Positions 17,464-45,259 of a DNA stretch of 64,000 nucleotides are shown one piece after another; positions within the stretch are counted from its first letter, which is position 1; every line of letters begins with the position of its first letter. Made by a program: the position numbers and the translations under genes. The DNA is from a virus (taxonomy: Duplodnaviria > Caudoviricetes). Where the stretch lies: the IMG/VR virus record IMGVR_UViG_3300032270_001445, positions 21,239-85,238 of that record; one strand, 5' to 3'. The notes beneath the pieces were generated by a model. It did no database searches. It worked only from the letters and a program-made list of their open reading frames with translations, and was not told where the DNA came from.

Positions 17464-17464
17464 A

Positions 17465-25545: not shown

Positions 25546-25594
25546 GCATTTCCGGGGCTTCTGCAACGCTCTCCGAGAGTGATTATCGAACCGC

Positions 25595-25680: not shown

Positions 25681-25777
25681 GCCCCTCCGGGGCTATCGGT
25701 CGTCCCAAGATGAGGCACGCTCTCGGCGTATTGTTCTTGTACGGGGGACTTCCCCGCGAAGTACAGAGGAGGCAATC

Positions 25778-29104: not shown

Positions 29105-29352
29105 ATTTATCACCCCTGCCACGGCGGACGCGCCGCGGCGGGGGTGGTTAGGTCGTTATTCTCTATAGAACTTTGTTCTATCCCGAAACTTCTCAGGATA
29201 ACTAACTGAATAATAACCACTAACTAAGTTCGACTCGCCGCTCCGCGGCTATCGGCTGAACCTGACTAAACTTTGCGAACCGCCTACTCTTCTTGTAGCG
29301 GGACGCCGCCACACTATCGTTGATGGTGTGAATCGCGATAACAGGAGGCGAA

Positions 29353-29601
29353 ATGGAAGCGTTGATGAAACTATTCGCTATGGCATGGATAGCAGAGAAG
29401 CGTTCATGGGAAAATCTGGAAAGATACGAAAACTTTCTTCTTGATCTGGGCAGGGAGCCAATGACGCACCCGTACTACAAAGGGCTTCTGGACCTTTGGA
29501 GTGAATCGCAAAAGGAGACCAAGAGGATCGGCAAGGAACTCCTCAAAGCGTACAGCGAAACGCAGGGCTCCGAATCGTTCTCGGTTCTCTCCGCGAAGTA
29601 G
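29353..29601 (+). CDS. Cassette 8: hypothetical protein
   Basis: AGGAGG RBS. Confidence 0.7.
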   Translation: MEALMKLFAMAWIAEKRSWENLERYENFLLDLGREPMTHPYYKGLLDLWSESQKETKRIGKELLKAYSETQGSESFSVLSAK

Positions 29602-29845
29602 ACCACAACCCCTCATCGCAGCGGACGCGCTGCGGTGGGGGGTTGGTAGATCGCTTCTCTCTATAGAACTTCGTTCTATCCCGAAGATCCATAAACTAAC
29701 TAACTAACTAACTAACTAACCTGGTTCGACTCGACGCTCCGCGTCTATCGGCCTAACATTACTAAACAACGCCGTACGCCTACTCTTCTTGTATCGGGAC
29801 GCCGACGCGTAATGATTGATTGCGCGAATAGTTTAGCAGGAGGGC

Positions 29846-30103
29846 ATGATGACTCTTGAGAATAGCGTGGTTGATGAGACCACGGAAGAGCAAGAAGATA
29901 CGGGTAGGTTTTGTGCTTGGTGTAAGGTATCTGAGCAGGAGACGGACATTCGTCACTCGTGGGACGACCACGAGGGTAATGATGTCTCTTACTTTGAGAA
30001 GAAGACAATCCTAGACCTTTGTAGGGAATGTTTTTACGAGGGTCACGTAGAGTCTGTTATTGACGACATCAAGAAGATTTACGCAGACCTAGCGAAGGGC
30101 TGA
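29846..30103 (+). CDS. Cassette 9: CxxC..CxxC acidic protein
   Basis: AGGAGG RBS; CAWC, CREC. Confidence 0.7.
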   Translation: MMTLENSVVDETTEEQEDTGRFCAWCKVSEQETDIRHSWDDHEGNDVSYFEKKTILDLCRECFYEGHVESVIDDIKKIYADLAKG

Positions 30104-30330
30104 GAGACCACCACCGTCAACCGCGGACGCGCGGTTGGCGGTGGCGGTTAGTTCGTCTCTCTCTATAGAACTTCGTTCTATCCCGCAGATCCCTAAGATA
30201 ACTAACTAACCTCATAACCATAACGTTCTGCCGGTCGCTCCGCGCCCTTCGGCACAACCTAAACTACCTGAGCGATACCGCGATTATGTATGTGCGGGGA
30301 ACACCTCGCGTAATAGTAAGGAGGTATGAA

Positions 30331-30612
30331 ATGGGAAAGCGGCTAAATCGTAATGGGGTCATTGCGGCGATCGCTCGCCTAGATGATTTCACATCGCATA
30401 CAAAGAGTATGCGTGGCGAGTGGCAGGGAGAGATCTACGTGGTGTATTCGTACAACCAGTGGATTGGTCAGACGGACGGCACGCATTGGAATCTAAACGA
30501 TCAGCGATACAGCGTGACGACATCCCGCCACCAGTCATATCTACGCCGTGCAATCAGCGCGCACGCAATCAACACTCAAGAGAGGGAGATCGGTAAGCTG
30601 CTCTCCAGGTAG
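30331..30612 (+). CDS. Cassette 10: conserved phage protein (YSY...YSxTTSRHQ family)
   Basis: AAGGAGG RBS; motif seen. Confidence 0.7.
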   Translation: MGKRLNRNGVIAAIARLDDFTSHTKSMRGEWQGEIYVVYSYNQWIGQTDGTHWNLNDQRYSVTTSRHQSYLRRAISAHAINTQEREIGKLLSR

Positions 30613-30831
30613 TCAATCCACCCGAGCCGCGAAGTCCTGCGGCTCGGGTGGTTAGGTCTCTTCTCTCTATCTCTCTTTGTTCGATCTCGAGACGCCATAA
30701 GATAACTAACTAACTGAGTTCGACTCGACGCTCCGCGTCTATCGGCCTAACATTACTAAACCAACCATCAAGCGTATTGTTCTTGTAGCGGCGGACGCGC
30801 CGCACAATCCAATAGTAGTAGAGGAGGCTTT

Positions 30832-31134
30832 ATGGGAGAGAAAGTAAAGCGCGTGAAGCGCAAAGCAACGGAGTCGCTTGGAGTGATCACGAAACTCCTC
30901 GCGCGCTCCATTGAGCAGCGTGCAGCAGCGGTTGACGCTGTTGATTTCACGCAAGAGCAGATTGCGATAGTCGCAAGAGCAGAGAAGCCCAGCAAGAGCG
31001 TCGTCAAGAAACTGAACGCTGCGCTTGTTGTTGCCAATAGTGCTCTCGCGTACTATGAAGCAAACGTCAAGGAACTTCAGAAGCGTCAGGCTTCTGCTAT
31101 GAAGGCGATTGAGAAGGCTCAAGCGCAAGAGTAG
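30832..31134 (+). CDS. Cassette 11: coiled-coil protein
   Basis: GAGGAGG RBS; Ala/Lys/Glu helical. Confidence 0.7.
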   Translation: MGEKVKRVKRKATESLGVITKLLARSIEQRAAAVDAVDFTQEQIAIVARAEKPSKSVVKKLNAALVVANSALAYYEANVKELQKRQASAMKAIEKAQAQE

Positions 31135-31357
31135 TATCCCCACCCTCATCGCAGCGGACGCGCTGCGGTGGGGGTGGTTAGATCACCTCTCTCTATAGAA
31201 CTTCGTTCTATCCCGGACCGCCTTAATATAACTAACCACCTAACTAACCAGCGTTCGATTACTCGCTCCGCTCGTATCGCAACAACCTAAACTGACCTGA
31301 CCTAAAGCCTATTCTTTGTATGTGAGGCAACCGCCTCACAATAGTAAGGGGGCTAAA

Positions 31358-31642
31358 ATGGCAGTGAAGCAAGTGCCAGAGAAGGTAGTCAGGGACATTG
31401 TTGAGTTCCAGAGTATCCTTGAAGGATTCATCGCGGCACTCAACAAAGGTAGATACTTCGATCACGATAGCCAACAGGCTGTTAGTGATGTGCTGTACCT
31501 TATGGAGAAGCCTTGGAAGTATAAGTTTGAGATGGCTGAGTGGGAGGTTCTTGGATACCCCGACGCTTACAATCCAGACTATGTTAGCGATCTAGAAATT
31601 GACACCACCGACGCAAAGATCTTTTCTTACTTCAGCCGCTAA
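31358..31642 (+). CDS. Cassette 12: hypothetical protein
   Basis: AAGGGGG RBS. Confidence 0.65.
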   Translation: MAVKQVPEKVVRDIVEFQSILEGFIAALNKGRYFDHDSQQAVSDVLYLMEKPWKYKFEMAEWEVLGYPDAYNPDYVSDLEIDTTDAKIFSYFSR

Positions 31643-31851
31643 CGATTCCCCCCGCTCACCGCGAACGCGCGGTGGGCGGGGTGGTCAATCTCTACTCTCT
31701 ATAGAACAAAGTTCTATCCCGCAGATCCCTAAGATAACTAACTAACGTTCCATAGCTCGCTCCGCTCGCTTCGGCAGAACTCTAACAAACTAACAGGAAC
31801 GCGTATTCTTTAGGTGCGGGGCAACAGCCACGCAATAGTAAGGAGGCTAGT

Positions 31852-32091
31852 ATGTCAATAAAGGAGTTCAGGGTAACGGCAACATACGAGACCACTGTTG
31901 AAGTGGATCAAGATTACGAGTGGCAGGTGTGCGACAAGCACAAGCCAGCCGACGATGAGACACCTGCTCAGTGGGATGTTCGCATGGTAGCGATTGAATC
32001 GTGCAGCGATTGCGACGATAAGGCTTACGATGTCGCTTCTGAAGAGGCTTACGGAAAGTTTCCAAACGCCGACGACATTGACATCTCCTAG
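31852..32091 (+). CDS. Cassette 13: acidic Cys-containing protein
   Basis: AAGGAGG RBS. Confidence 0.7.
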   Translation: MSIKEFRVTATYETTVEVDQDYEWQVCDKHKPADDETPAQWDVRMVAIESCSDCDDKAYDVASEEAYGKFPNADDIDIS

Positions 32092-32315
32092 TCGCTAAGG
32101 AGAACCCCCGCTCACCGCAATCGTGCGGTGGGCGGGGTGTTCGTTTCCTTCCCTCTATAGAACTTCGTTCTATCCCGCAACTCCTTAATCTAACTAACCA
32201 CCTAACTAACGTTCGCACGCTCGCTCCGCTCGCTTCGGCCGAACTCTAACAAACTAACGCGTAGGCGTATTCTTTGGGTGCGGGGATTCCCGTGAAGATC
32301 ATAAGGAGGCTTGAA

Positions 32316-32519
32316 ATGGTTGCGTGCGATCAGTGCGGCACGGAGTTCTTCAACGAGTTTGAGCCGCTCTCAACGATCTGCGAATCGTGCAAGGAAGAAG
32401 AATCCGCAGCGGCGGACGCGTATTGGGAGAAGTATCTTGATTGGGTTGATGATACCCATCATCGCGATAGCGATGACGATACTGACCCGCTTATTCAATA
32501 CGAAGACGGCTGGCGATAA
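32316..32519 (+). CDS. Cassette 14: acidic Zn-finger microprotein
   Basis: AAGGAGG RBS; CDQC...CESC. Confidence 0.7.
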   Translation: MVACDQCGTEFFNEFEPLSTICESCKEEESAAADAYWEKYLDWVDDTHHRDSDDDTDPLIQYEDGWR

Positions 32520-32523: not shown

Positions 32524-32566
32524 TAAAGCCCCAGATTCCCACGAGGGAGTCTGGGGCTTTATTATT
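32524..32566. terminator. Bidirectional terminator where the two arrays converge
   Basis: taaagccccagattccc-acga-gggagtctggggctttattatt. Confidence 0.8.
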
Positions 32567-32631
32567 GAGTTCCAGTCCTAGCAGCCGCGGCTGCTAGGAG
32601 CCTAACGATAATAGCCCCTAGCAGCCGAGGA

Positions 32632-32910
32632 TTATGCGGAGTAGTAATCCAACTCCATCTTCTCCACGAAGTTATCGTCAACTTCAATCTCGCTATATTC
32701 CACAACGAAGCCTTCCCGCGCCATTGCGGTTATGAACAATGGTGCGTCACAATCTTCTTCAAGGTAGACGCTTCCGTTGCCTTCGTATGAGCAGTTGCTC
32801 ACAACGCTGGCGATACCGAGTTGGCGAAGCATAGCCTTCTCCGCTACGAGGTAGCCGTGCCCTGGCGTATTGAACTTCCGCGTGAAGTAGGTTGCCGAGA
32901 TTCCGAACAT
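32632..32910 (-). CDS. Conserved phage protein (PGHGYL...YLEEDCD family)
   Basis: AAGGAGG RBS; motif seen. Confidence 0.75.
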   Translation of the reverse strand: MFGISATYFTRKFNTPGHGYLVAEKAMLRQLGIASVVSNCSYEGNGSVYLEEDCDAPLFITAMAREGFVVEYSEIEVDDNFVEKMELDYYSA

Positions 32911-33038
32911 TGGTGCCTCCTTGCTTCCCTACGGCAACTGCCGCAACGCAATACTACGCGAACTTCTGGCAGGTTGTCAAGCGTTCCATCCTAAGCCACC
33001 GCGGTGGCTTAGGGCTGAACCCTAAACCACCGCGCTCG

Positions 33039-33368
33039 CTACGCGTTCGCGTTCTCTGTCTGTTGTCGCTCGTTCTCTATTGCTTCGTCGGTGTAGTGCT
33101 TCGCGATCTCCCGCCAATCAACGCGCGAGAGTGAGGCGCCGAGCAAATCGGTCACGAGCCCAACCGCCGCCTCTGGTAGCGTGTTGGTCACTTCCTCCTT
33201 GAGCCACTTGCCCATTTCATAGGCTGCGAAGTTTCCGTCGCTGTCGTTGCTTTCTGCGAACGCACGAGCCTGCTCCTCTACTCCGTGGAGGTCTCCGATG
33301 ATCCCCTCACCGAGCCAGAGATTGACGAGCCATGTCTCGTAGTTGCTCCAGCCGTTGTAGTCTGCCAT
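33039..33368 (-). CDS. Conserved phage protein (YNGWSNYETW family)
   Basis: AAGGAGG RBS; motif seen. Confidence 0.75.
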   Translation of the reverse strand: MADYNGWSNYETWLVNLWLGEGIIGDLHGVEEQARAFAESNDSDGNFAAYEMGKWLKEEVTNTLPEAAVGLVTDLLGASLSRVDWREIAKHYTDEAIENERQQTENANA

Positions 33369-33526
33369 TTTTGCCTCCTTATGACCTAGCGGGAAGCCCC
33401 GCAAGGGAATACTAAACGAACTCCTAGCGAACTGTCAAGCGTTCTATTCCAATGTGCCGCGGCACATTGGAGCCTAACAATAAACCCCGCCGAAGCGGGG
33501 CTTATTGTTTCCGCAGCTGCGAAACT

Positions 33527-33934
33527 TTACGCCATCGGATAGTTGCCCAGTTCTAGAAGCGTCTTGATTTCCGCAACCTGCTCATCGCTGAACGCAAGCG
33601 TCTTGCCGTCCTCGTCCTCTGCGGTGAGTACGCAGTTGCCGTAGATTCCGTCAAACACGCCGCCAAGAATCTCATTGCGCAAAGATGTTGCCGCCTGATT
33701 GCGAATCACAGGCTCGTTGTATAGCCCTTCCTCGTCGCACCAAAGCACCACGCTCGTCGCGCCGTACTTACCAGAAGCCGCAACCTCTACCAGGCTCCAC
33801 TCGCCGACTCGGTAGAGTTCGGTGAGCGTGTTGCCGTCATCGTTGAAGTCCACGACCTCAACCCAGTTGAACAGCGCGGGGACTGGCGTAGCAGTCTCAA
33901 ACTTTCCAACTCCGAACTTGATTGCCTTACCCAT
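33527..33934 (-). CDS. DUF3846-like protein
   Basis: LWCDEEGL...NQAATSL...IYGNCVLT. Confidence 0.65.
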   Translation of the reverse strand: MGKAIKFGVGKFETATPVPALFNWVEVVDFNDDGNTLTELYRVGEWSLVEVAASGKYGATSVVLWCDEEGLYNEPVIRNQAATSLRNEILGGVFDGIYGNCVLTAEDEDGKTLAFSDEQVAEIKTLLELGNYPMA

Positions 33935-34054
33935 TTGCTTGCCTCCTTTGCCTTTCATCGGGAAGCCCCGACCTCTGAATCTTACGCGATAAAGTTCCAG
34001 CCTGTCAAGGGGTTCTATCTCAAATGGTCGCGACCATTTGAGGCTGAACAAAAT

Positions 34055-34292
34055 GATAAGGGTCTGACTGGCACCACACCAACCAGACCCTTATCGGCAT
34101 TTCGCTGCCTTTGACGCTTATCCTCTTGCGAGGAGAGGCTTCACCTTCCGGCTGCCTCTTGCGAACGGCGTAGGTGTCGGTTAGGCACCCCCACCGCTCG
34201 TCCTTATCGTCTCGGGTAGTTAGTCTACAACTACCAACCAGCCGCAGCCCCATAAGCCCGCCACTTTCACAGCGGCACCAGAGCGGCTCGTG
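34055..34292 (-). ncRNA. Candidate structured ncRNA occupying a cassette slot
   Basis: Own promoter and terminal hairpin, no AGGAGG-led ORF, several GNRA-type stem-loops. Confidence 0.45.
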
Positions 34293-34377
34293 TGATGATT
34301 CTAAACGAACATCTGCCAGCCGTCAAGCGTTCTATCCCAAATGGCCGCGGCCATTTGGGGCTGAACAATAATAAGAG

Positions 34378-34590
34378 TTATACGCCGCTTCTTACTGCCT
34401 CGTCTAGTCTTGTCGCCGCTTCCGTAATCGTCGCCAGAACTTCGTCGCCAAAGATTTCCGCGAAGCCCGTAGGCTCGGCGGTATGGTCTGCCGCAAGTTT
34501 CTGGAACCGATAGGCTCCGTCATCTTGCTGGTAATAGCGTGCGAAGGTTGTCGTTGCGCCGTTGGTGTGAATCTGCTTCCACTCCGTCAT
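34378..34590 (-). CDS. Hypothetical protein
   Basis: GGAGG RBS at the end of the upstream gene. Confidence 0.6.
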   Translation of the reverse strand: MTEWKQIHTNGATTTFARYYQQDDGAYRFQKLAADHTAEPTGFAEIFGDEVLATITEAATRLDEAVRSGV

Positions 34591-34591
34591 C

Positions 34592-34876
34592 TTATCCCTC
34601 CACTTCATACTTCTCGCCGCCGATTCGCAGCCCTGTGATTGCGTCAAGCGCGATGGTGCGATAGCCCTCGGCGGTAATGTCGTAGACAAAGATGAGGTCT
34701 TTCGCAGCCGCGTCATACGCAGCCTCGCCGCCTTTGAGGTGCTTCTTGACCCCAAGACGCGCCGTCATCTTTCGCAACTCGCCTGTCGTGCGCTTCACGA
34801 AGTCCACGCCAAAGATCGCGCCGTTGCTTGTGCGGATCATCTCTGCCGCCTCTGCCATCTTGATTACCTTGTTCAT
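34592..34876 (-). CDS. SH3/WYL-like small protein
   Basis: VDFVKRTTGELRKM...VYDITAEGYRTI pattern. Confidence 0.55.
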   Translation of the reverse strand: MNKVIKMAEAAEMIRTSNGAIFGVDFVKRTTGELRKMTARLGVKKHLKGGEAAYDAAAKDLIFVYDITAEGYRTIALDAITGLRIGGEKYEVEG

Positions 34877-35024
34877 TTAAGCCTCCTTACTTCTGTACCT
34901 TTCTGGTACAAGATGATTCTAGAACAGACCTATCCAATCCGTCAAGGGGTTCTAGTCCAAAGGGCCGCCGCCCTTTGGAGGCGAACAAAAATACCGCCCG
35001 AAGGCGGCATCTTTGCTTTCTGGA

Positions 35025-35363
35025 CTACTCGGCTGTCTGAAGCGCGATGATCTTGCTGAACTCCAGTTCAGCGTCGCGCTCGTGCTCAAACGCAACGAAG
35101 TCAATGAATCCATCGTTTCGCCAATGGACAACGATGTTGCCGAACTTGTCGTAAGTCCCATCAAGTTCAGTTGAAATGAAATCGTCTGGGACTGCCAGTC
35201 CGTCCATCACATCGCCGTAGATTTCAGCAAACTTCAGATCGTAGCCTTCAAGACGACTCGCAACCCTTTGCTCAACAAGCCAGTCGCCATCGCAACTTCC
35301 CTGAGAGCACTTGAACTTCGTGAAGTCGCCGTTCGTGAGTGAAACCGCCAGAGCCTTGAACAT
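35025..35363 (-). CDS. Acidic hypothetical protein
   Basis: AGGAGG RBS. Confidence 0.7.
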   Translation of the reverse strand: MFKALAVSLTNGDFTKFKCSQGSCDGDWLVEQRVASRLEGYDLKFAEIYGDVMDGLAVPDDFISTELDGTYDKFGNIVVHWRNDGFIDFVAFEHERDAELEFSKIIALQTAE

Positions 35364-35553
35364 TTTAGCCTCCTCTGTTATCCGCCCAGTTGGGCTATGC
35401 CCATTGTAATCAGTAATCTACTCAGCCGTCAAGAGGTTCTATTCCGAGGAGCCGCCGCTCCTCGGAGACGAACATAATAAAGCGGACTAGTTGGGCTGCG
35501 ACTCAACTAGTCCGCTTGTAGTGGATAGGTGGAGGCTTTCTACCTATCCGTAG

Positions 35554-35826
35554 TCATAGTGCCGCCAAGTACGGCAGGCGGCAGTCGTATCCTAGCAGGC
35601 AACTTGATGGCTCGTGATGGACAGGCTCAACCGCCCACTCAAGGCAAGTCCCGCAAGACTCGCCGCACCAGTTCACTTCGTCCCAGTCAAAGACAGGGTG
35701 AAGTGGATTGCCTTCGCTATCAACAGATTCCTCGTCGTTCAGAGCCGTTCCCCACCTTGCCTCGGAGCAGGGTACGCAATGAACAGCAGCCTCGTATTGC
35801 CACGCGATCGGTGTGTGCTCGCTCAT
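35554..35826 (-). CDS. Cys/His-rich acidic protein
   Basis: AGGAGG RBS; HCVPC, CGTC. Confidence 0.7.
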   Translation of the reverse strand: MSEHTPIAWQYEAAVHCVPCSEARWGTALNDEESVDSEGNPLHPVFDWDEVNWCGESCGTCLEWAVEPVHHEPSSCLLGYDCRLPYLAAL

Positions 35827-36019
35827 CTTTGCCTCCTTGTTTCGTCAGAAGTCCTGACTAAGGGATTGTCGCACAGCCGCAACAGCCTGTCAAATGGTTC
35901 CATCGTAGGTAGCCGCCGCTACCTACGCCCGAACATAATAAACTGCTATGGGCGGGTAAGCACCAGCGCGTAAAGCATAAGCGCGCCGAGCATTATGTAG
36001 AACGCTCCCTGCGCGTCCA

Positions 36020-36283
36020 TTAGATCAAATCCGAAAGCGTTGGGACTGCCTCGTAGCAATCGTCGCAAAGATACTCAATGTTCTCGTGGGCGTTCTCGTA
36101 GCCGTTCCAGCCGTAAGGGAAAGAACGCTTCTTGCCCTCAAATGGGCAACGCTTCTCCAATGAGAGAAACTCCTCGCCGTGGCACTCCTGAACGAGCGGG
36201 TGGTCGTGCGTTTCGCACTCGCATTGATCGTAGTAGCAATCGCCGTTGCCACACATCGTCATTGAGCCTTGTAGGTACGCCAT
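36020..36283 (-). CDS. Cys-rich acidic protein
   Basis: AAGGAGG RBS; LCDDCY. Confidence 0.65.
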   Translation of the reverse strand: MAYLQGSMTMCGNGDCYYDQCECETHDHPLVQECHGEEFLSLEKRCPFEGKKRSFPYGWNGYENAHENIEYLCDDCYEAVPTLSDLI

Positions 36284-36397
36284 TGTCGCCTCCTTATTCG
36301 CAGCCCCAAATCGGGGTAGCCCCATTGTAAATCCATCGCGCCAGATTCGTCAAGCGTTCTAATCCAAGGAGCGGCGGCTCCTTGGAGCTGAACCTAA

Positions 36398-36630
36398 TAA
36401 AGAAGCCTCTTGGAACCCGTCGGTCCCAAGAGGCTTCTTTCGGATTATTCATTGGGGGCTAATCACTTCCCCCAACTCCTTTTCCTTCCGCTCCGCCGAT
36501 CCATTGGCACCTAGCGGTCATCGTCCTTTGCGTCTCGTCTACCCGCGCTTTATTGGTGGCGGCAGACCTGCTCGCTCGTCCACGAGTCTCACCTAGTCGG
36601 AGTTGCTTCATCTAGAATCGCTTCCGACAA
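36398..36630 (-). ncRNA. Second candidate ncRNA cassette (GGA-rich)
   Basis: Promoter TTGACA-18-TAGTAT, strong terminator 36398-36440, only an RBS-less 50-codon ORF. Confidence 0.4.
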
Positions 36631-36772
36631 GACCATACTAAGCGATGATTATACGACCTGTCAAGCCCCTAGTTTCAGTTCTATCCCAAGAGGCCGCCGC
36701 CTCTTGGGGCAGAACATAATAAATAAGCCACCCCCGGCGGGGTGGCTTATTTACTTTGGATTCTGCTCTAAA

Positions 36773-37735
36773 TTACGCGAGGGCGAGAATCGCTTCGCGC
36801 TTTGTCTTGGCTGCGAAGCCCGTATCAAGCATTACGCTTGACGCACGAGCGTCCAGAGCCGTTGATCGCACGCCGCCGCGATACGATACGCCGTGATCTA
36901 GATACTCGGCGATGGCGTTATACACGCCCCACTTCGTATCGCGAAGCCCGTCAAGATTTTCTGCGTTATTGAGAATCGCGAAGGTTGCCTTTGCGCGCTC
37001 CGACATTACTTCCTTCTCTCGCTTCTCCGACTCCGAGAGCGGGAAGATTTTTGAGATGATGCGGAAAGCCTCGCCTCGCTCAATCTTTTCCTTGACCATA
37101 CGCGAGCCGATGAGCGAGAACTCATCAACAGCGGCAGAGGCAAGACCAAGAGCGCGCTTGGCTTCCGATACTTTCTCCTCAATCTTCGCGGTGTGGCGAA
37201 GCGTGAACGACATCTTGGCAGAGCCAAGAGCCGCGTTCAGCGTGTTCATACAAACTACGCGTACGGGCGTGATCATCGCTTTTAGCGGGAACAGCCCGTT
37301 ATGCCCGTTGGCGATCACAAGGTAAGTTGTGGTCGCGCCGTTGTCGCCCTTGATCGCGATCTTTTCTGGAATCTCCAACGCTGCGAAGATCACCTGACCG
37401 CTTTTGAGTGATCCTGCCGTTTCGTATCGTGCGCCCTCATCAAGAAGCGCGTCTGCGAACGACATCATCTCATCGTTCTGGATTGGCGTGTAGCGATCCC
37501 CGACAACGCCGAGAACCTCGCCGTCCGTTGATCGTACATTTGCGCGCTTGCCGTTGATCGCAATCTGCTTGCCGTCAAGCGTAGTGAAGATCGGCTGCTG
37601 CTTTACCGCCCAGTCAAGACCAGCCGCAACGATCATCTCCGCGCTTGTGGTCAAGCCGTTGGTCGCAACGCCAAGCCCATGCCACGGCATACCTCGCTCC
37701 TTGTTGTATGCCATCGTTTCTACCTCGTGTGCCAT
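36773..37735 (-). CDS. DUF932-family protein
   Basis: MAHEVETMAY...PWHGLG...AGLDW...YTPIQN...ETAGSL...TPVRVVCMNTL...LRHT. Confidence 0.85.
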   Translation of the reverse strand: MAHEVETMAYNKERGMPWHGLGVATNGLTTSAEMIVAAGLDWAVKQQPIFTTLDGKQIAINGKRANVRSTDGEVLGVVGDRYTPIQNDEMMSFADALLDEGARYETAGSLKSGQVIFAALEIPEKIAIKGDNGATTTYLVIANGHNGLFPLKAMITPVRVVCMNTLNAALGSAKMSFTLRHTAKIEEKVSEAKRALGLASAAVDEFSLIGSRMVKEKIERGEAFRIISKIFPLSESEKREKEVMSERAKATFAILNNAENLDGLRDTKWGVYNAIAEYLDHGVSYRGGVRSTALDARASSVMLDTGFAAKTKREAILALA

Positions 37736-37859
37736 TTCGTACCTCCTTATTTCCCAACGGCAAGTGCCGCTAGATGGATTGTAAAGTACCGCCGAGATTG
37801 CGTCAAGTTCTACCCCAAAGGGCGGCGGCCCTTTGGGGTCTAACCATAATAAGAGCGAT

Positions 37860-37988
37860 CTACTCTCCGTGCTCGCAGTTCTCTGATTGCTCCAACTCGT
37901 AGCACGCATTATCTCGTGTTGGCGTGTTCACGCACTCGCAGACGACCTCGTTGCGCTCGCAGTCGTCGCACCAAACCATCGTGCTCAC
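37860..37988 (-). CDS. 42-aa Cys-rich microprotein
   Basis: Manual translation (GTG)STMVWCDDCERNEVVCECV...; GTGA overlap. Confidence 0.45.
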   Translation of the reverse strand: MSTMVWCDDCERNEVVCECVNTPTRDNACYELEQSENCEHGE

Positions 37989-38218
37989 AGGACTCCCGTC
38001 CCTTCGCAGCCACAGGCTCCGTCTTGGCACATAGCACCTTCGGCAACAAACATCGCGCAGCCATACTTGTCCGCACGATTCTCCTCGCAGTCAGAGCAGT
38101 ACCACTCGGCGTGCCCACTGGCGTTATTATCTGAACACCACTCGCCCTCTTTGCCGCAGCCGCAAACAAAGATAGTGTTTTGCGGTTCGCCAACAGGAAT
38201 CTCAAAGTGGTCGCTCAT
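37985..38218 (-). CDS. Cys-rich protein
   Basis: CGCG, YCSDC, CQDGACGC. Confidence 0.6.
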   Translation of the reverse strand: MSDHFEIPVGEPQNTIFVCGCGKEGEWCSDNNASGHAEWYCSDCEENRADKYGCAMFVAEGAMCQDGACGCEGTGVL

Positions 38219-38424
38219 TGTGCGACCTCAAAGCCGTCAGCCTGAATCCCGTCAAGAATCTGAGAAGCGAATCGTCGCTCAACGGCAAGCCCCTGACCGA
38301 AGTAGATCGCGTCCTCGCCGATGTTGTCGTCTAGCCAGCGACGAGCCTCGCGTGTTGCGGGAATCAACAGGCAGACCGAGCCGCCGTCTACGAAAGTGAA
38401 GTCCGCGCTCTTGTGCTCACTCAT
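38215..38424 (-). CDS. Conserved small phage protein
   Basis: AAGGAGG RBS; GSVCLLIP...WLDDN...VERRF. Confidence 0.7.
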   Translation of the reverse strand: MSEHKSADFTFVDGGSVCLLIPATREARRWLDDNIGEDAIYFGQGLAVERRFASQILDGIQADGFEVAQ

Positions 38425-38540
38425 ACAGCCTCCTTACTCCTTCGCCCAAGTCGGGCTTACGCAATCTTACAACCTATCTAGTTCTGGTGTCAAGGGTTCT
38501 ATCCCAGATAGCCGCCGCTATCTGGGGACGAACCTAATAA

Positions 38541-38750
38541 TCACTTCTTCCAGTCTTCTGGAACTTCACGCCAAGTTTCGCCGCCATTGTCGCAATCCGA
38601 TGAATAGATGTCGCACTCTTGACACCAGACCACAAAGCAGTCCTCTGCGTGTCCAGAGATTTCACAATCAGACCATAACCAATGCGCGTCCCTCTTGTCC
38701 GTCGGGCAGTCGCAGGGCTTTCGTTCAGATGTAGGGAATAAGCGACTCAC
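38541..38750 (-). CDS. Cys-rich protein
   Basis: GTGA overlap; WCQEC. Confidence 0.55.
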   Translation of the reverse strand: MSRLFPTSERKPCDCPTDKRDAHWLWSDCEISGHAEDCFVVWCQECDIYSSDCDNGGETWREVPEDWKK

Positions 38751-39196
38751 AGGACTTCGCAACCTTTTAGGTCAGCGCATAGCGCAAGGAACTCCTGCCA
38801 CTCTCGGATAAGCCCAAGCCAACTTTTCGCCTCATCGGAGGGGTCAGCCCTGTCTGCGTCAGACGAGTATGTATTCGCCTTGATGAGATCACTCATTATC
38901 ACGATGATCTCATCGTCGCCCATTGAGGCAATCTTTTCGGATAGTTGGCGGCATTGGTAGTTCTTGATCACATCGCCGCTATTGTCCACGAGGCTTTCGT
39001 TCACATCGTCAAGCCCGATGGCTTCGTGGAAATCACGCAACATCGGCATACCCCAAATGTTCAGACGGAAGTAGATCGTATCGGGAGCCTTCTCCGCATA
39101 CGAGCCGTCCTCGTCAATCCACATTGAGCGGTACTTCTTTGCGTGAGCAGCCGCAGCCTCGCGGTCAGGTAGCAGCGAGTAAATGTCGTAGCCCAT
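38747..39196 (-). CDS. Hypothetical protein (MGYD...YFRLNIWGM type)
   Basis: AAGGAGG RBS. Confidence 0.7.
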   Translation of the reverse strand: MGYDIYSLLPDREAAAAHAKKYRSMWIDEDGSYAEKAPDTIYFRLNIWGMPMLRDFHEAIGLDDVNESLVDNSGDVIKNYQCRQLSEKIASMGDDEIIVIMSDLIKANTYSSDADRADPSDEAKSWLGLIREWQEFLALCADLKGCEVL

Positions 39197-39320
39197 TTCA
39201 TACCTCCTTACGCCTCACTCCAAGCGGAGCCTCATCATTGTAAGACCGCGCTAGTTATTCTGTCAAGGGGTTCTATCCCAAGAGGCGGCGGCCTCTTGGG
39301 GCAGAACTAATTAACCTTGC

Positions 39321-39794
39321 TTAGTAGATTTGGTTGGTTGTGTATCCGCACGCCATACAGACGGGCGCAGAGCAGCCCTCTGGGTTTTCGCCCGTGTCTA
39401 CGCCTTCATCTGGGTCGCACACGCCACACGGAGCATAATCAACATCTCGGCACAGGCACTCACTAACTGAATCTCGCGGTATGTCGTTGTAGTGTCGGTG
39501 CCAGTTTGCTTCATCTTCTCGCGTTAGCGCGCTGATCAAGCACTCTGGATTAAAGCACCAGCCGTTATCTCGCGCCTCCTTATCCGACATAAGTGGCGGG
39601 TGAAACTCACACTCGCAAGGAGCGCAGTCCAAGCAGAATACTAAGTAGCCTTCTGGCACGCCCTTCTCGTACTGATCAAAGTCAAGAACATCAAACCGCG
39701 TGTTCGGCTCGCCGTTCCAAGTCCCGATGACCTTCTCGTCTGCGTAGAAGATCGGAGCCGAGCAACGCGTACAAGCGTGAAGTTCACCGCTCAT
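39321..39794 (-). CDS. Multi-CxxC protein
   Basis: CTRC, CLDC, CGVC, CMAC. Confidence 0.65.
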   Translation of the reverse strand: MSGELHACTRCSAPIFYADEKVIGTWNGEPNTRFDVLDFDQYEKGVPEGYLVFCLDCAPCECEFHPPLMSDKEARDNGWCFNPECLISALTREDEANWHRHYNDIPRDSVSECLCRDVDYAPCGVCDPDEGVDTGENPEGCSAPVCMACGYTTNQIY

Positions 39795-39960
39795 CTGTAA
39801 TCTCCTCCGTGCTCCATACGATTGTTTCTGGGGTCGTGTCCCACGGCGCAGGTTCCTCGGAAGCAGTCCACGCCTTCTGCTCTGCCTCCTGCTTGCTATC
39901 GGCTTCTACCTCAAACTCCCGATAGCCTGTGTTCTGTAATACAACAATCCACTTACTCAT
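39784..39960 (-). CDS. DpnD/PcfM-like small protein
   Basis: YREFEVEADSKQEAEQKA. Confidence 0.6.
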   Translation of the reverse strand: MSKWIVVLQNTGYREFEVEADSKQEAEQKAWTASEEPAPWDTTPETIVWSTEEITDER

Positions 39961-40264
39961 TTTCGTCCTCGTCATCTGCGCCCTGCTCAATGAGGGAAAT
40001 GAATCCGTCATTAGGGTTTGCGTGATTCGTGCGAACTGCCTGAACGAAGCGCAAGCCGCAAGAGTCCGCGTACCAGTCCTGAATCGTTGCGAGCATTTCG
40101 CTTGGCGTGAGATCATCTGCGGATAGAAGCGGGTCGTATCCGTACTCCTTCATCTGAGCCATCTGCTCATCGTCCATCAAGACATAAATCTTGTGGCATT
40201 GGTCAAAGCCGATTCCCTTTGCCATCTCAACCGCAACCTCTACCTTGTCCCAACTAGCAGCCAT
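39953..40264 (-). CDS. Hypothetical protein
   Basis: AAGGAGG RBS; FDQCHKIYVLMD...SCGLRF. Confidence 0.7.
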   Translation of the reverse strand: MAASWDKVEVAVEMAKGIGFDQCHKIYVLMDDEQMAQMKEYGYDPLLSADDLTPSEMLATIQDWYADSCGLRFVQAVRTNHANPNDGFISLIEQGADDEDENE

Positions 40265-40427
40265 CACAACCTCCTTATTTCCCAACGGCAAGTGCCGTCT
40301 AGTGGATTGTCCCATACCCGCGTACCAGCCGTCAAGCGTTCTATCCCAAGTAGCGGCGGCTACTTGGGGACGAACCTAATAAATAAGCCGCCCCCGAAGG
40401 GACGGCTTATTTGCATGCGACTAACGA

Positions 40428-40970
40428 TTACGCTGGTACTTCTTGCTTCGCAGCCTCTTCCTTTGTGATCTTGCCGCTGCGAATCGCATCGCGGAGAGCG
40501 ATGTGCTCGCCCCAAGTGATCGCGTCCTGCTCTGGGTTCTCCTTCTCCGCGTGTCGGAGTTCACGCAATCCCTCTTCCTCCATACGCTCCATCACGCGCT
40601 TGCGCCAAGCCCCTGCCGTCTCGTATGAGGCGTTGGTGTTCAGCCCGATGTGATTCACGAGATCGGCTCGCGTAATCATGCGTGGCTCCCACTTGATGTT
40701 GCCGTCGCTCTCGTATCCAGCAAACACCACCATCTTGCTAATCCAGTCAATGTGATAAGCAAGGGCAAGACGCTTCTCCCACTCGTCAATGTTTCCTTCG
40801 GTAATCTCATTGAGTCCGATGCTCATCGTCAGCCAGACGATGTTGTCGGTGATTGGGTGCGTGTATTCATTGCCTCGGATCACGCCATCAAATGTGCGCG
40901 TCTTTACGGCGGTGAAGTAGCAGATGTCGTCTGAGTTCTTTACTTCGCGTACTGACCAGTTCAGCGGCAT
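40428..40970 (-). CDS. Hypothetical protein
   Basis: AAGGAGG RBS; IGLNEITE. Confidence 0.7.
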   Translation of the reverse strand: MPLNWSVREVKNSDDICYFTAVKTRTFDGVIRGNEYTHPITDNIVWLTMSIGLNEITEGNIDEWEKRLALAYHIDWISKMVVFAGYESDGNIKWEPRMITRADLVNHIGLNTNASYETAGAWRKRVMERMEEEGLRELRHAEKENPEQDAITWGEHIALRDAIRSGKITKEEAAKQEVPA

Positions 40971-40979
40971 AGAGCCTCC

Positions 40980-41207
40980 TTACTTCTTCTTGGTGGCGCG
41001 CTTTGCGCCAGACTCACGGATCGCCTTTTCCAGTTTCGCCGTGCGCTTATCGGCGTGATGGCTGCTGATGACGAAGAACGCCCAGATCGTTGCTGGAATC
41101 CAGCCGATCAAGGTGAACTGAAGAATCAGCGCGATGATCGCCTGAAACCATTTGCCAGCAGCCAGAAACCCGAACGCTGGAAAGAGCAACGCTAACAGGT
41201 ACTTCAT
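40980..41207 (-). CDS. YqaE/Pmp3-like membrane proteolipid
   Basis: LLALLFP...LIGWIPATIWAF. Confidence 0.65.
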   Translation of the reverse strand: MKYLLALLFPAFGFLAAGKWFQAIIALILQFTLIGWIPATIWAFFVISSHHADKRTAKLEKAIRESGAKRATKKK

Positions 41208-41402
41208 TTCCTACCTCCTTACTCGTTATCGGGAAGTCCCGATAGATGGATTTTCTCACAGGTACTAGCGACCTGTCAAGCGTTCTATCCCTCATGGCCG
41301 CCGCCATGAGGGGGCGAACCTAATAAATAAGCCCCGCCGTTTCCAGCAGGGCTTATCTACACTTGGGCTGGGCGCTGTGATTGTACCCAGCCCAGAATCT
41401 AA

Positions 41403-42239
41403 TCAGCCTCCGACAACACCTCCGAAATGCTCATCACAGAAAGACTCGTACTCGGTCATCGGCACTTTGTCGTAATCACGCTCGCCCCACTCAATCTTGC
41501 CGTTCTCATCTTTGAGCCAAGCGTCGTCCCCGATGTCCTCTGCGCTGTATTCCATACGCGAGGCTTCTTGACCACCCTCGTAGACAACCTGACCAGCGAA
41601 GCCCATACCGCCCTCGCAATAGCGATGGGTAATGGTGAGCATTGGAAACTGCTCCGCAAGCGCGGCGATCAACGGCTCAACAGGAGCCCACGCCGTATCA
41701 AAGTTGTACGAGGTTTGACCCGCCACCATTCCGTCAGCGTTGTCTACTCGGTCGTTCCACGCTTCGCTTGCGCTCCACTTGGAACCCCAGTTCTCAACAT
41801 TCCAGTTGTACCACCAGTCTGGGTGATTGGCGTTTCTTGGTACGAAATGTTCTGGGCAAAGTTCCGTGCCGCCAAACTCTGAATCAACAAACCCACGAAG
41901 TGTTGATGTGTCTGGCGTGCCGCGGACAATCGCCTTGCCATTGACCTGACGCTCGTGCTGGTAGACCATCTCCTTTACTTCCTCGCCGTCCACATTGCGA
42001 ACTTGCTCGGTCTTTGGAAGGTCGGTAAGTTCCACCCACTTATCCTTACAGCCGCATTGGAAATCATTCTGCCCTTCGTTGATCGTGTAGAACTTGCTGG
42101 TCGGCGGCGGCAGAATCTTTGCGAAGGAGAATACATCGTCTTCGTTCGTACTCGTGTCGCCCTTGACGAAATCAACAAGCCTTGCGACATCTACCTCGTC
42201 GCCGCTAATGTCCACTTGGTTCACGCACCAGTTAGGCAT
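41403..42239 (-). CDS. YubB/DUF1281-like ferredoxin-domain protein
   Basis: MPNWCVN...WYNWNVENWGSKW...FDTAWAP...YCEGGMGFAG. Confidence 0.8.
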   Translation of the reverse strand: MPNWCVNQVDISGDEVDVARLVDFVKGDTSTNEDDVFSFAKILPPPTSKFYTINEGQNDFQCGCKDKWVELTDLPKTEQVRNVDGEEVKEMVYQHERQVNGKAIVRGTPDTSTLRGFVDSEFGGTELCPEHFVPRNANHPDWWYNWNVENWGSKWSASEAWNDRVDNADGMVAGQTSYNFDTAWAPVEPLIAALAEQFPMLTITHRYCEGGMGFAGQVVYEGGQEASRMEYSAEDIGDDAWLKDENGKIEWGERDYDKVPMTEYESFCDEHFGGVVGG

Positions 42240-42382
42240 CTTCTTTACCTCCTTGTATCACAGACAGGGAAGCCCCTGCCGTTAGATTGTAAGCCAGATT
42301 ATAGCCAGCCGTCAAATAGCCCACCTTCGGTTCTATCCCACATGACCGCCGTCATGTGGGGCCGAACTTAATAAATAACGAT

Positions 42383-42715
42383 TTAGCGATCGAAGGACAT
42401 TGCGCTAACTCCGTCAGGGGTCATAACCACATGTCCACCCTCTACGAAGATTCTTCCACCATCGTTCGCTTCATCATCAGATGAAATAACAAGGGAATAA
42501 CGCTTGCCGCCCTGCTCTACGAATAAAACTGGCATGTAAGGGTCAGCACCGCCATCGCCTAACACCGTGCCGCCAATAATCGTTGCGCCAATAAGCGGCT
42601 CAACCATCTCTGTCCGAAGGTAGTGCCGCTCAATCTGGTCGCGGCTCAATCCGCTTCGCTCCTTGACTAACTGATCTCTGCTGCTCAATAACTGCGCGAT
42701 CGTTTCGATTGCCAT
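42383..42715 (-). CDS. Hypothetical protein
   Basis: AGGAGG RBS; SSDDEANDGG. Confidence 0.65.
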   Translation of the reverse strand: MAIETIAQLLSSRDQLVKERSGLSRDQIERHYLRTEMVEPLIGATIIGGTVLGDGGADPYMPVLFVEQGGKRYSLVISSDDEANDGGRIFVEGGHVVMTPDGVSAMSFDR

Positions 42716-42892
42716 AACCTAACCTCCTTGACTCCTTCGGCTAACTGCCGTGGGAGCATTATAAGGTTGCCCATAACGATCTGTCAAGCCCTAAGCTCGG
42801 GTTCGACCCTCGCGTCTGCGGACGCTCGGCTCGCACAAATAACAACTCCTGTCAAGTCCTCCCCAAAAGATCAAATAACCACGAATGCCAGT

Positions 42893-45183: not shown

Positions 45184-45259
45184 TGGTAGGGACGCCTGGA
45201 CTCGAACCAGGAACCGCTGAGATATAAGCTCAGTGCTCTAACCGTTGAGCTACGTCCCC
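45184..45259 (-). tRNA. tRNA-Ile(UAU), CCA encoded
   Basis: GGGGACG TAGCTCAACGGTTAGAGC A CTGAG-CTTATAT-CTCAG ... GGTTCGAGTCC ... CGTCCCT A CCA (76 nt). Confidence 0.92.

Follow-up and report, generated by a model that had tools for sequence, protein, structure and literature searches.

Repeated stem-loops coupled to promoters have been described in T4-like myoviruses as PeSLs (promoter-early stem-loops; Arbiol et al. 2010, PMC2839356; Comeau et al. 2014, PMC4122927), and PeSL cassettes are both the closest known kind to, and a precedent for, the array described here, in which a 38-bp DNA element separates 16 self-promoted early genes of an uncultured long-tailed phage. In both systems a repeated stem-loop is joined to a strong early promoter of sigma70-like type, the cassettes are interspersed with small accessory early genes in a hyperplastic region, and related phages show gain, loss and re-ordering of cassettes, with crossovers inside the regulatory motif. 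PeSL stems, however, are mostly of the G-run/C-run type and have been shown to terminate transcription, whereas the element here is a strict 10+4+10 perfect Watson-Crick palindrome of free sequence that lacks a U tract and, in most cassettes, is additional to a canonical terminator. Its host is also an unrelated siphovirus, and the element caps both ends of the array.

Integrons provide a second point of comparison, because there too a site follows each cassette and a different site stands at the array head, and attC sites likewise have variable sequence, conserved secondary structure, and GTT/AAC boxes set apart from the inner stem by an unpaired spacer. The phage array differs in that no integrase was found in the complete genome, the boxes have the opposite polarity, the stem is perfect and without extrahelical bases, each cassette has its own promoter, and breakpoints do not fall at a single position. 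The early promoters of coliphage N4 are DNA hairpins read by the virion RNA polymerase; these hairpins, each with a stem of 5-7 bp and a 3-nt loop and centred 11 nt from the start site, are themselves the promoter. Both the N4 hairpins and the element described here belong to phage early regions, depend on structure more than on sequence, and are thought to extrude under supercoiling, but the stems here are 10 bp long and lie upstream of a complete sigma70-type promoter, and no phage RNA polymerase was detected in the phage. REP/BIME elements of enterobacteria are also short repeated palindromes that follow genes in intergenic DNA. REP elements are imperfect, sequence-conserved, mostly transcribed and linked to RAYT transposases, features that are not seen for the phage element. 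A regulatory cruciform upstream of a bacterial promoter has a precedent at exsA of Vibrio parahaemolyticus (PMC10325908), where an intergenic inverted repeat acts as a DNA structure, as the phage element would; exsA, however, is a single chromosomal locus with a known regulator, HlyU, whereas the phage element is repeated 16-fold, with variable arms and no known binder. Promoter regions of E. coli are enriched in cruciform-capable inverted repeats (PMC6060812).

The early-gene array and its boundary elements

Within the window, by which we mean the whole 64,000-nucleotide stretch of DNA analysed, perfect copies are confined to an early-gene array on the minus strand of the 85-kb siphophage genome, and no copies of the boundary-element type were found outside this array. 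Each cassette runs from a promoter through a 5'-UTR hairpin and an AAGGAGG ribosome-binding site to either a non-coding RNA or one to three small ORFs, with a terminator in some cases; every cassette junction carries one copy of the element, both array ends included. The element reads A/T tract, GTTC-nnC, 10-bp arm, 4-nt G+C loop, second 10-bp arm and nTRGAAC, and each 38-mer is predicted to fold as single-stranded DNA at -9.8 to -15 kcal/mol (z -3.3 to -6.4). The 24-nt core, a 10-bp stem and 4-nt loop, is perfect in 16 copies, which confirms the original prediction of sixteen palindromes with different sequences and one structure. The arm sequences listed in that prediction match as well, with the omission of CCCAAAGGGC (37814); one arm, CCCAAGAGGC, is used by two copies (elements 4 and 7). 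The features are as follows, in plus-strand coordinates of the window, with each core given by its first base.

32569..42840, minus strand: whole early array, 16 cassettes with 17 boundary elements between (16 perfect, one reduced)
42801..42840, minus strand: reduced element at the first promoter; A/T tract, mini-hairpin GCGTC-CGCA-GACGC (5 bp), followed by GAGGGTCGAAC; 13 nt before the -35 box (42787)
42330..42367, minus strand: boundary element 1, core 42337; GTTCGGC-CCCACATGAC-GGCG-GTCATGTGGG-ATAGAAC; -35 box downstream at 42315 (14-nt gap)
41282..41319, minus strand: boundary element 2, core 41289; arm CCCTCATGGC, loop GGCG; terminator before; -35 box 41279
40338..40375, minus strand: boundary element 3, core 40345; arm CCCAAGTAGC, loop CGCC; terminator before; -35 box 40335
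39270..39307, minus strand: boundary element 4, core 39277; arm CCCAAGAGGC, loop CGCC; no preceding terminator; -35 box 39266
38496..38533, minus strand: boundary element 5, core 38503; arm CCCAGATAGC, loop GGCG; begins 7 nt past a stop codon; -35 box 38493
37807..37844, minus strand: boundary element 6, core 37814; arm CCCAAAGGGC, pairing to 12 bp, loop CGCC, left box GTTA; GAAC directly adjoins the -35 box at 37806; DUF932 gene downstream
36678..36715, minus strand: boundary element 7, core 36685; arm CCCAAGAGGC, loop GGCG; terminator before; -35 box 36664 (13-nt gap); non-coding cassette downstream
36356..36393, minus strand: boundary element 8, core 36363; arm TCCAAGGAGC, loop CGCC; terminator before; -35 box 36353
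35897..35934, minus strand: boundary element 9, core 35904; arm CGTAGGTAGC, loop GGCG; -35 box 35893
35436..35473, minus strand: boundary element 10, core 35443; arm TCCGAGGAGC, loop GGCG; terminator before; -35 box 35432
34949..34986, minus strand: boundary element 11, core 34956; arm TCCAAAGGGC, loop GGCG; terminator before; -35 box 34945
34329..34366, minus strand: boundary element 12, core 34336; arm CCCAAATGGC, loop CGCG; -35 box 34326; non-coding cassette downstream
34012..34049, minus strand: boundary element 13, core 34019; arm CTCAAATGGT, loop CGCG; terminator before; -35 box 34008
33441..33478, minus strand: boundary element 14, core 33448; arm TCCAATGTGC, loop CGCG, left box GTTA; terminator before; -35 box 33438
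32983..33020, minus strand: boundary element 15, core 32990; arm CCTAAGCCAC, loop CGCG; -35 box 32980; near-copy of the right arm immediately upstream
32569..32606, minus strand: terminal boundary element 16, core 32576; arm TCCTAGCAGC, loop CGCG, left box GTTA, right box CTGGAAC; no promoter, array-end terminator next
32525..32560, no strand assigned: terminator-like hairpin of bidirectional form (A tract, stem, T tract), at the meeting point of the minus-strand array and the convergent plus-strand array

Six related IMG/VR phages share the element, for a total of 110 copies over seven phages. In the array described here, 15 of the 16 copies are followed, 7-21 nt downstream, by a sigma70-like -35 box (TTGACR-N17/18-TAnAAT site), and a promoter scan returned 19 promoter-like sites against 6.0 +/- 2.9 in shuffles. 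The expectation of an inverted repeat at each promoter holds for these 15 copies but not for the first promoter, which has only the mini-hairpin followed by TCGAAC, so that 16 promoters stand against 16 perfect copies and one reduced copy. Nor are the palindromes fused to promoters, as had been supposed: GAAC is separated from the -35 box by a variable gap of 0-5 or 12-14 nt, and the terminal copy is promoter-less in all seven phages, where it retains a GAAC-type box (AAAC in two phages). The copy at 32569 had been singled out as lacking a promoter and marking the array end, and this was borne out. Because the promoter-less terminal copy and the reduced copy at the first promoter are kept by every phage, the element bounds cassettes rather than forming part of the promoter; its unfixed spacing to the -35 box also counted for this role.

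A position after the upstream terminator, and hence outside the transcript, had likewise been anticipated. For 62 of 108 copies this placement stands, with a strong intrinsic terminator before the element and the next transcription start after it, but the other 46 (about 40%) have no strong terminator in front and may occur within read-through transcripts. In this phage, a recognisable strong terminator precedes only 8 of 16 copies.

Pairing, loops and frame

The element is selected for structure rather than sequence, and its core is a perfect palindrome of free sequence. The covariance analysis that the original prediction had proposed was run on 91 copies from six phages, selected for perfect copies; in this alignment all 10 stem pairs change on both sides, 269 cells are compensated, and 890 of 890 cells are paired. 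This level of pairing was reached by none of 500 shuffles, and it fell to 33-48% when the partner column was slid. A flank-anchored scan adds just two imperfect copies with one transition mismatch each, giving 108 perfect copies of 110 and 1098 Watson-Crick pairs of 1100, the two exceptions being a G·U and an A·C. In the terminator-like hairpins that lie 10-40 nt upstream of the elements, by contrast, 100 of 1019 pairs are G·U, and because about 10% of terminator pairs are G·U against near-perfect pairing in the palindromes, the two are under different constraint.

The outer boxes behave otherwise. GAAC is present in all 16 copies, as expected, but the left box is GTTA in three of them, and since the frame does not covary, GTTC and GAAC are a sequence motif rather than an outer stem. 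The fixed TAATAAA that had been reported proved to be a 5-6-nt A/T tract adjoining GTTC.

The loops point in the same direction as the stems. Phages L021 and L024 are 97.2% identical, yet their loops differ at 9 of 60 nt, compared with 1.7-4.2% in the flanks, and in three cases the loop is flipped exactly (GGCG/CGCC), twice between flanks that match at 100 of 100 nt. The orthologue of element 2 in phage L022 also has an identical arm and a loop flipped to CGCC. Such flips with unchanged flanks indicate that loop orientation is free, as it is in five phages, and that the stem-loop behaves as a DNA hairpin, although flips drawn from metagenome assemblies could partly reflect within-population mixtures. 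Even the reduced element has a stem that covaries in L021 and L024 (GCTTC...GAAGC). Together, Watson-Crick perfection, loop flips and terminator placement favour a DNA-level structure over RNA. The overall interpretation in the original prediction is therefore supported in part: selection for structure and the preference for DNA stand, while fusion to promoters does not.

Cassette borders and the function of the element

Comparative data place recombination breakpoints within the element. Cassette order varies between related phages, which have re-assorted their cassettes by crossovers located there. Arms travel with either the upstream or the downstream gene, with a mean arm identity of 6.76 of 10 positions in the former case and 6.68 in the latter against a background of 5.84. 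Where only the upstream genes are orthologous, excess identity stops just past GAAC; where only the downstream genes are, it starts within the stem. A recent cassette replacement between L021 and L024 has breaks directly past the -35 box and at the A/T-GTTC edge. The arm of element 6 co-occurs with its downstream gene in six phages, and the arms of element 13 differ among four phages although both flanks are orthologous. The element is the longest sequence common to all cassettes, and this alone may explain why crossovers fall there.

Our preferred reading, a tentative one at somewhat less than even confidence, is that the 38-bp element serves as the module that bounds self-contained cassettes in a PeSL-like array, and that it acts as DNA, not RNA. 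The core would be selected for leaving the duplex as a hairpin pair (a cruciform) once the junction becomes underwound by the negative supercoils that trail an RNA polymerase departing the strong promoter 7-21 bp downstream or, alternatively, on single strands at the replication fork, and the neighbouring A/T tract would aid opening. Once extruded, the element could absorb superhelical stress and form a structural break between the terminator and the next promoter that insulates adjacent transcription units, while the extruded structure and the conserved edges, the only sequence common to all cassettes, might channel strand exchange to cassette borders. Counting against a cruciform, a 24-bp G+C-centred palindrome is estimated, from the general energetics of cruciforms, to need high negative supercoiling for extrusion.

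The arms themselves also count against a DNA-structure reading, because 7 of 10 positions are fairly conserved (YCCAA...GC) and would suit a sequence-reading protein too. The palindrome could then be an operator through which a phage or host protein controls all early promoters jointly, for example in shut-off after the early burst, by reading the conserved edges (GTTC, YCCAA/TTGGR, TRGAAC) on hairpin, cruciform or duplex. We consider this fairly unlikely, despite a nearly invariant TRGAAC (T in 95 of 96 copies, GAAC in at least 94 of 96), GTT in about 90 of 96, a well-conserved arm base (YCCAA) and arm tip (GC), a position at about -45 to -70 of each promoter, recurrence of GGGATAGAAC in the adjacent plus-strand array, small HTH proteins encoded in the genome, and a regulator that acts on the promoter-upstream cruciform at exsA (PMC10325908). 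A reader of B-form DNA gives no cause for uncontacted mid-arm positions to be complementary in 108 of 110 copies. Furthermore, the surroundings are normal even for copies with an arm base fully unlike YCCAA (TTGGAGCAGC, TGGAACAGGC, CATTACGGGC, TCATCTTTGC), the -35 box lies at distances that differ by half a helical turn and more, terminal copies are conserved although they lack a promoter, and no candidate protein was identified.

It is improbable that the palindrome works instead as an RNA hairpin in read-through transcripts, where it might stabilise 3' ends, be processed as a REP-like or RNase III-like site, or act between cassettes as an attenuator in reserve. The position directly past the stop codon or terminator of each cassette, the last one included, and the copies without a strong terminator in front would fit such a role, as would the termination demonstrated for PeSL stem-loops (PMC2839356). 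In phages G001 and L020, moreover, 15 loops are TCCG in the gene-sense strand, closed by a C-G pair, and CGGA was never seen, which hints at strand-specific reading, possibly of an RNA UNCG-type tetraloop. These loops and the terminator-less copies also count against our preferred DNA reading. Yet loop orientation is free in the other five phages, the near absence of G·U sets the palindromes apart from the adjacent true terminators, and a strong terminator stands before most copies. On neither strand is the hairpin followed by a U tract, and the flanking tract is A-rich in many copies; the mini-hairpin at the first promoter has no upstream gene on its strand; and an Rfam search of the element gave no match.

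The coincidence of breakpoints with the element would also be expected if it were a site-specific recombination site read by its structure, like the attC of integrons. Folded as single-stranded DNA, it would be cut by an unrecognised recombinase at the GTT/AAC boxes, and cassettes would leave or enter the array whole. The site after each cassette with a different one at the array head, the conserved structure of variable sequence, the 3x3 unpaired spacer between boxes and stem, and GTTAGRC in three copies, which corresponds to the attC core GTTRRRY, are consistent with this notion. We nevertheless find it quite improbable, as breakpoints do not share one phosphodiester bond but are scattered from the A/T tract to just beyond the -35 box, the outer boxes show no covariation and run GTT...AAC, opposite to the AAC...GTT of attC, and there are no extrahelical bases or asymmetry for strand choice. 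No tyrosine recombinase was found in the complete genome, and no RusA, RuvC, integrase or other recombinase or resolvase among the proteins scanned.

It is highly unlikely that the palindrome is functionless, a passive part of the inherited cassette chassis whose perfection is maintained when, at replication, one arm serves as template for repair of the other: the loop flips seen in close relatives, and their arm changes compensated in a single step, fit template switching, and the fixed 10+4+10 size is expected from indel-free inheritance, but similar-sized terminator hairpins 10-40 nt away are not homogenised, the element is kept at 110 junctions in seven phages despite heavy shuffling, array ends too, and the genome is otherwise almost free of short perfect palindromes, with 19 of the 10+4+10 kind in the whole 85 kb against 0.1 in shuffles.

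The early array and its junction element

The source virus record, of which the window covers bases 21239-85238, is 85,238 bp long with direct terminal repeats of 117 bp. Its gene products include portal, capsid, protease and terminase proteins, a protein of 3493 aa that matches tape measures and a tail fibre of 2417 aa, and the phage is therefore a long-tailed siphovirus. The succession of the last two ORFs (L017 and L018) implies a very long tail. No close cultured relative was found, and the phage database holds no close relative either; the phage's sugar epimerase is uninformative about the host, since many phyla have proteins about 70% identical to it. An array with the same element is present in six related IMG/VR phages, and a degenerate pattern scan of IMG/VR for other carriers returned mostly chance matches, placing the element only in the known relatives.

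Features of the phage and its minus-strand array (genome coordinates refer to the whole 85-kb record)
Genome 8796-19277: 3493-aa ORF (L017), sole family match to tape measure, over about 100 aa
Genome 19278-26531, extending into window 1-5293: 2417-aa tail fibre (L018), endosialidase-chaperone domain at the C-terminus
Window 45184-45259, minus strand: tRNA-Ile(TAT) gene
Window 51525-51600, minus strand: tRNA-Arg(TCT) gene
Window 36773-37909, 41403-42239, 33527-34051 and 33039-33404, minus strand: array proteins with matches to DUF932, DUF1281_C (Api92-like), DUF3846 and DUF7249
Window 34055-34300 and 36400-36640, minus strand: two ORF-less cassettes, each with a full promoter and a closing terminator and with neither ribosome-binding site nor ORF

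Sixteen short transcription units form an array on the minus strand (window 32569-42840). Each cassette is built in the order of a sigma70-like promoter (TTGACR, a spacer of 17-18 nt, TAnAAT), a small hairpin opening the 5' UTR, an AAGGAGG ribosome-binding site and one to three small ORFs, except that two of the 16 have no ORF at all. A promoter scan called 19 promoter-like sites, against 6.0 +/- 2.9 in shuffles. Several of the array protein families (DUF932, DUF1281, DUF3846) are frequent in the leading regions of conjugative or mobile elements, an association that would suggest early anti-defence or host-takeover roles. By their layout, the ORF-less cassettes look like structured non-coding RNAs of about 240 nt; they match nothing in Rfam and are kept in relatives, and one is swapped for a different variant between L021 and L024, two of the related phages. 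The short G+C hairpin at the transcript start of every cassette (window 32600-42760, minus strand) lies 10-25 nt before AAGGAGG, usually carries CTT in its loop (examples are CGGGGCTTCCCG, GGCACTTGCC and CCCGACTTGGG) and looks like a 5' mRNA stabiliser.

Between the cassettes of the window lie 16 perfect palindromes with 10-bp arms and a 4-nt loop, in 15 distinct arm sequences. The whole genome holds 19 perfect 10+4+10 palindromes (0.1 in shuffles), and none of the array type occurs outside the array. Fifteen of the 16 sit 7-21 nt upstream of a TTGACR-N17/18-TAnAAT site, so that, as in cruciform-type regulatory repeats, a promoter is preceded by an inverted repeat of perfect or near-perfect pairing whose arms are close together; there is precedent for a bacterial promoter with a regulatory cruciform on its upstream side (PMC10325908).

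Our catalogue comprises 108 perfect copies from this phage and its six relatives, to which a flank-anchored relaxed scan added two imperfect ones (110 in total). Read in gene sense, the consensus is W5-6, n, GTTC, nnC, YCCAAnnrGC, SGCS, GCynnTTGGR, nTRGAAC. The size is fixed, at 10+4+10 in perfect copies and exactly 30 nt from GTTC to GAAC; TRGAAC is nearly invariant and GTTC less conserved. The gap from GAAC to TTGAC is 0-5 nt in 89 copies and 12-14 nt in 8, while 11 copies lack such a promoter or box where expected. The A/T tract beside the element varies between T-rich and A-rich from copy to copy, and the 38-mer, with its 10-bp arms, has a DNA hairpin energy of -10 to -15 kcal/mol. In the last two cassettes, which have no canonical terminator, a near-copy of the right arm lies just upstream of the palindrome (minus strand, window 32607-32625 and 33021-33040; GGCTGCTAGGGG and GCGGTGGTTTAGGG). 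The left arm would thus have two possible partners, and the near-copy may represent an alternative hairpin or a trace of the arm's origin.

The ends of the array bear on what the element belongs to. The first promoter, which has no upstream gene on its strand, carries a reduced version consisting of the A/T tract, a mini-hairpin of 4-5 bp with covariation from phage to phage, and TCGAAC or CCGAAC before the -35 box. A promoter-less copy with a GAAC-type box closes the last cassette in all seven phages, taking a degenerate 9-bp/5-nt form with the box AAAC in G001 and its relative L020. Thus, with a reduced copy at the head and a promoter-less copy at the end, N cassettes are bounded by N+1 elements. 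The other sigma70-like promoters of the genome have no such element, which belongs to the junction and not to the promoter as such. The original prediction had described the palindromes as fused to promoters; 15 of the 16 do lie upstream of one, but the variable spacing and the terminal copy speak against fusion. Its promoter-less copy at the array end is borne out, with a counterpart in every phage of the set.

A structure-selected, DNA-level palindrome at every cassette border

Every cassette border carries a perfect palindrome that is selected for its structure at the level of DNA. The covariance analysis proposed with the original prediction was run on 91 perfect copies from six phages, the near-duplicate seventh being omitted. 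All ten inner pairs vary on both sides, with 269 compensated cells and zero one-sided ones, and 890 of 890 cells are paired, values reached by none of 500 shuffles; sliding the partner column lowers pairing to 33-48%. These copies were chosen for being perfect, and the figure free of that selection bias is 108 perfect copies out of 110. The two imperfect copies, both in the related phage L022 (L022:1287-1310 and L022:3963-3986), have the loop TGCG and one transition mismatch apiece (in the sense strand, G·T in one copy and A·C in the other); they probably represent steps on the way to a compensated pair. No covariation links the outer GTTC and GAAC, GTTC changing to GTTA or GTGG while GAAC stays constant; these boxes are therefore sequence motifs, and a fourth helix formed by them is rejected. 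Apart from small corrections, the palindromes are as first described in all essentials. Three mid-arm positions are essentially free and the remaining arm positions less variable, with 61 distinct arms among the 108 perfect copies; that the palindrome is a protein operator seems to us unlikely.

A hairpin acting in RNA is less likely again. The palindromes contain one G·T and one A·C per 1100 pairs, whereas the terminator-like hairpins found 10-40 nt upstream of them in the same genomes contain G·U in 100 of 1019 pairs. Because a G·U on one strand is an A·C mismatch on the other, this contrast is accounted for if pairing is required of both strands, or of DNA, but not by a function in a single RNA strand. 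A strong hairpin-plus-T-tract terminator stands directly ahead of 62 of the 108 copies, including 8 of the window's 16, with the next start site downstream. The claim that the element lies after the upstream terminator and before the start site holds for those copies, but read-through might reach about 40% of copies. After the stem comes nTRGAAC in the sense strand and GnnGAAC in the other, and a U tract in neither. A reading as intrinsic terminator on either strand is rejected on this ground and on the A/T tract, T-rich or A-rich by copy; a terminator scan calls none of the 16 palindromes. A search of Rfam 15 returned nothing at the gathering score, and at E <= 1 it gave no hit on the palindromes.

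The loops speak partly for and partly against a role in DNA. Between L021 and L024, which are 97.2% identical, orthologous loops differ at 9 of 60 nt, compared with 1.7-4.2% in the flanks and 1 in 150 stem pairs. At three of these loops, as given by metagenome consensus sequences, the two phages are exactly reverse-complementary (GGCG against CGCC), and at two of the three all 100 of 100 flanking nucleotides agree; the same flip occurs in an orthologue pair from this phage and L022. Such flips are a known signature of hairpin-mediated template switching in DNA and, as read from consensus sequences, indicate that loop orientation is not read. In G001 (sequence L019) and L020, 15 of 29 loops are TCCG, always on the gene-sense strand and never CGGA, and are closed by a C-G pair in the manner of UNCG loops; other loop types do flip, CTCG/CGAG in these two and GGCG/CGCC in other phages. 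The one-way TCCG loops and the copies that read-through might reach are points in favour of an RNA hairpin, and they count against the DNA reading. The G·U contrast, the terminators ahead, the missing U tract, the loop flips and the lack of an Rfam match favour, at the level of sequence comparison, DNA over RNA. For selection on a DNA structure in the element, the evidence is unusually clean.

Exchange of cassettes at their borders

Cassette borders are the places at which cassettes are exchanged among relatives. Among junction pairs compared between phages, 135 share only the downstream gene, 70 only the upstream gene, and in 30 both genes are orthologous; mean arm identity (of 10) is 6.68, 6.76 and 7.93, respectively, the background being 5.84. 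In a position-wise profile, excess identity stops just past GAAC when only the upstream genes are orthologous and starts within the stem when only the downstream genes are. We used this profile instead of a histogram of HSP end points, which is confounded by the element's own paralogy. One cassette is replaced between L021 and L024, with the left break directly past the -35 hexamer and the right breaks at the edge of the A/T tract and GTTC. Crossovers are thus limited to the element and its immediate edges without sharing one nucleotide, a pattern better matched by homology- or structure-assisted exchange than by classical site-specific recombination.

An attC-like site for a recombinase not yet recognised is improbable. 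The element resembles integron attC in architecture but lacks its defining features: attC has the polarity R''(RYYYAAC)...R'(GTTRRRY), extrahelical bases and an imperfect stem, while the element has GTTC...GAAC and a stem that is perfect in 108 of 110 copies. Furthermore, no integrase was found: a search of the complete 85-kb genome for tyrosine recombinases (PF00589) at E <= 1 came back empty, with matches in all control genomes. Nor do the breakpoints fall at one nucleotide. An integron-like reading is rejected on the absence of that recombinase and the wrong polarity of the boxes. A scan of about 45 proteins with PHROGs or Pfam, which covered the small ORFs in part, yielded no Holliday-junction resolvase (RusA, RuvC, endonuclease VII) and no other recombinase. 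That the palindrome is a functionless passenger is very improbable.

The reading we prefer, tentatively and a little short of even confidence, is composite: the core would extrude as a pair of hairpins, with roles in buffering, as a boundary and in template switching. Negative supercoils from transcription arise just upstream of a strong promoter, an adjacent A/T tract favours opening-driven extrusion, and the arm sizes of the classical ColE1 and pBR322 cruciforms span a range that includes 10 bp. Extrusion would occur at the underwound junction, where the cruciform could buffer superhelical stress between tandem strong units and serve as a structural boundary. At a replication fork, the single-strand hairpin could stall synthesis, favouring template switching between cassettes. 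That intermediates are almost absent would be explained if one mismatch is enough to affect extrusion.

We are more doubtful that the palindromes act purely as DNA structure, whether as a supercoil-gated cruciform that insulates and tunes each early promoter or as an integrase-independent, attC-like single-strand recombination site for trading early, probably anti-defence, cassettes. Either version, if true, would make shape and not sequence the defining property of a natural DNA element present in many copies; for bacteria and phages, the known functional DNA cruciforms and hairpins amount to a handful of single loci. The clade supplies about 110 natural copies with built-in compensatory 'mutants', in which sequence statistics separate a DNA-level constraint on the palindromes from an RNA-level constraint on nearby terminators. 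If the structure insulates strong tandem promoters or directs cassette exchange, it would explain how accessory early genes can be dense, independently expressed and quickly re-assorted, and it could provide a compact boundary element for synthetic biology.

Known systems and the convergent array

The promoter-early stem-loops (PeSLs) of T4-like phages are mobile promoter/stem-loop cassettes (PMC2839356, PMC4122927). Like them, the element joins a repeated intergenic stem-loop to a strong sigma70-like early promoter (at 15 of 16 palindromes), among small accessory early genes in a plastic region where relatives differ by shuffling with breakpoints in the element. Unlike them, it is a strictly perfect palindrome of free sequence and fixed geometry, is additional to canonical terminators and belongs to an unrelated phage lineage. 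The element is real, highly non-random and clade-specific, and is of the PeSL kind in a different form. Even if it were only a PeSL-type terminator variant, the PeSL concept would be extended from T4-like myoviruses to an unrelated siphovirus clade.

N4-type promoters have a 5-7-bp stem, a 3-nt loop and a start about 11 nt from the loop centre, whereas the element has a 10-bp stem, a 4-nt loop and a complete sigma70-type promoter downstream. The 3493-aa ORF has the size of the N4 vRNAP, yet only tape-measure families match it, and the PDB sequence set gives it no match, to N4 vRNAP or otherwise. The ORF after it, of 2417 aa, encodes a tail fibre, and the N4-like reading is rejected. A PF00940 search for a phage RNA polymerase gave no match, its controls being equally silent. 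Readings of GAAC as an ECF-type site or a LexA box are, by inspection, inconsistent in spacing and partner motifs. The element is neither an N4-type promoter nor an intrinsic terminator, and it belongs with neither REP elements nor any Rfam family.

A further set of small genes converges on the minus-strand array.

Window 25667-32519, plus strand: second, convergent array of about 14 small genes, each behind a repeated chassis of about 250 bp

This chassis comprises a hairpin that is rich in G+C and lacks a U tract, TCTATAGAAC-TTC-GTTCTATCCC, and TAACTAAC repeats; it further includes GTTCGA with a 5-bp/TCC mini-hairpin, a weak promoter (CTGAMC-N17-TAYTCT) and a hairpin in the 5' UTR. The sequence GGGATAGAAC (minus strand) is common to this array and the minus-strand element.
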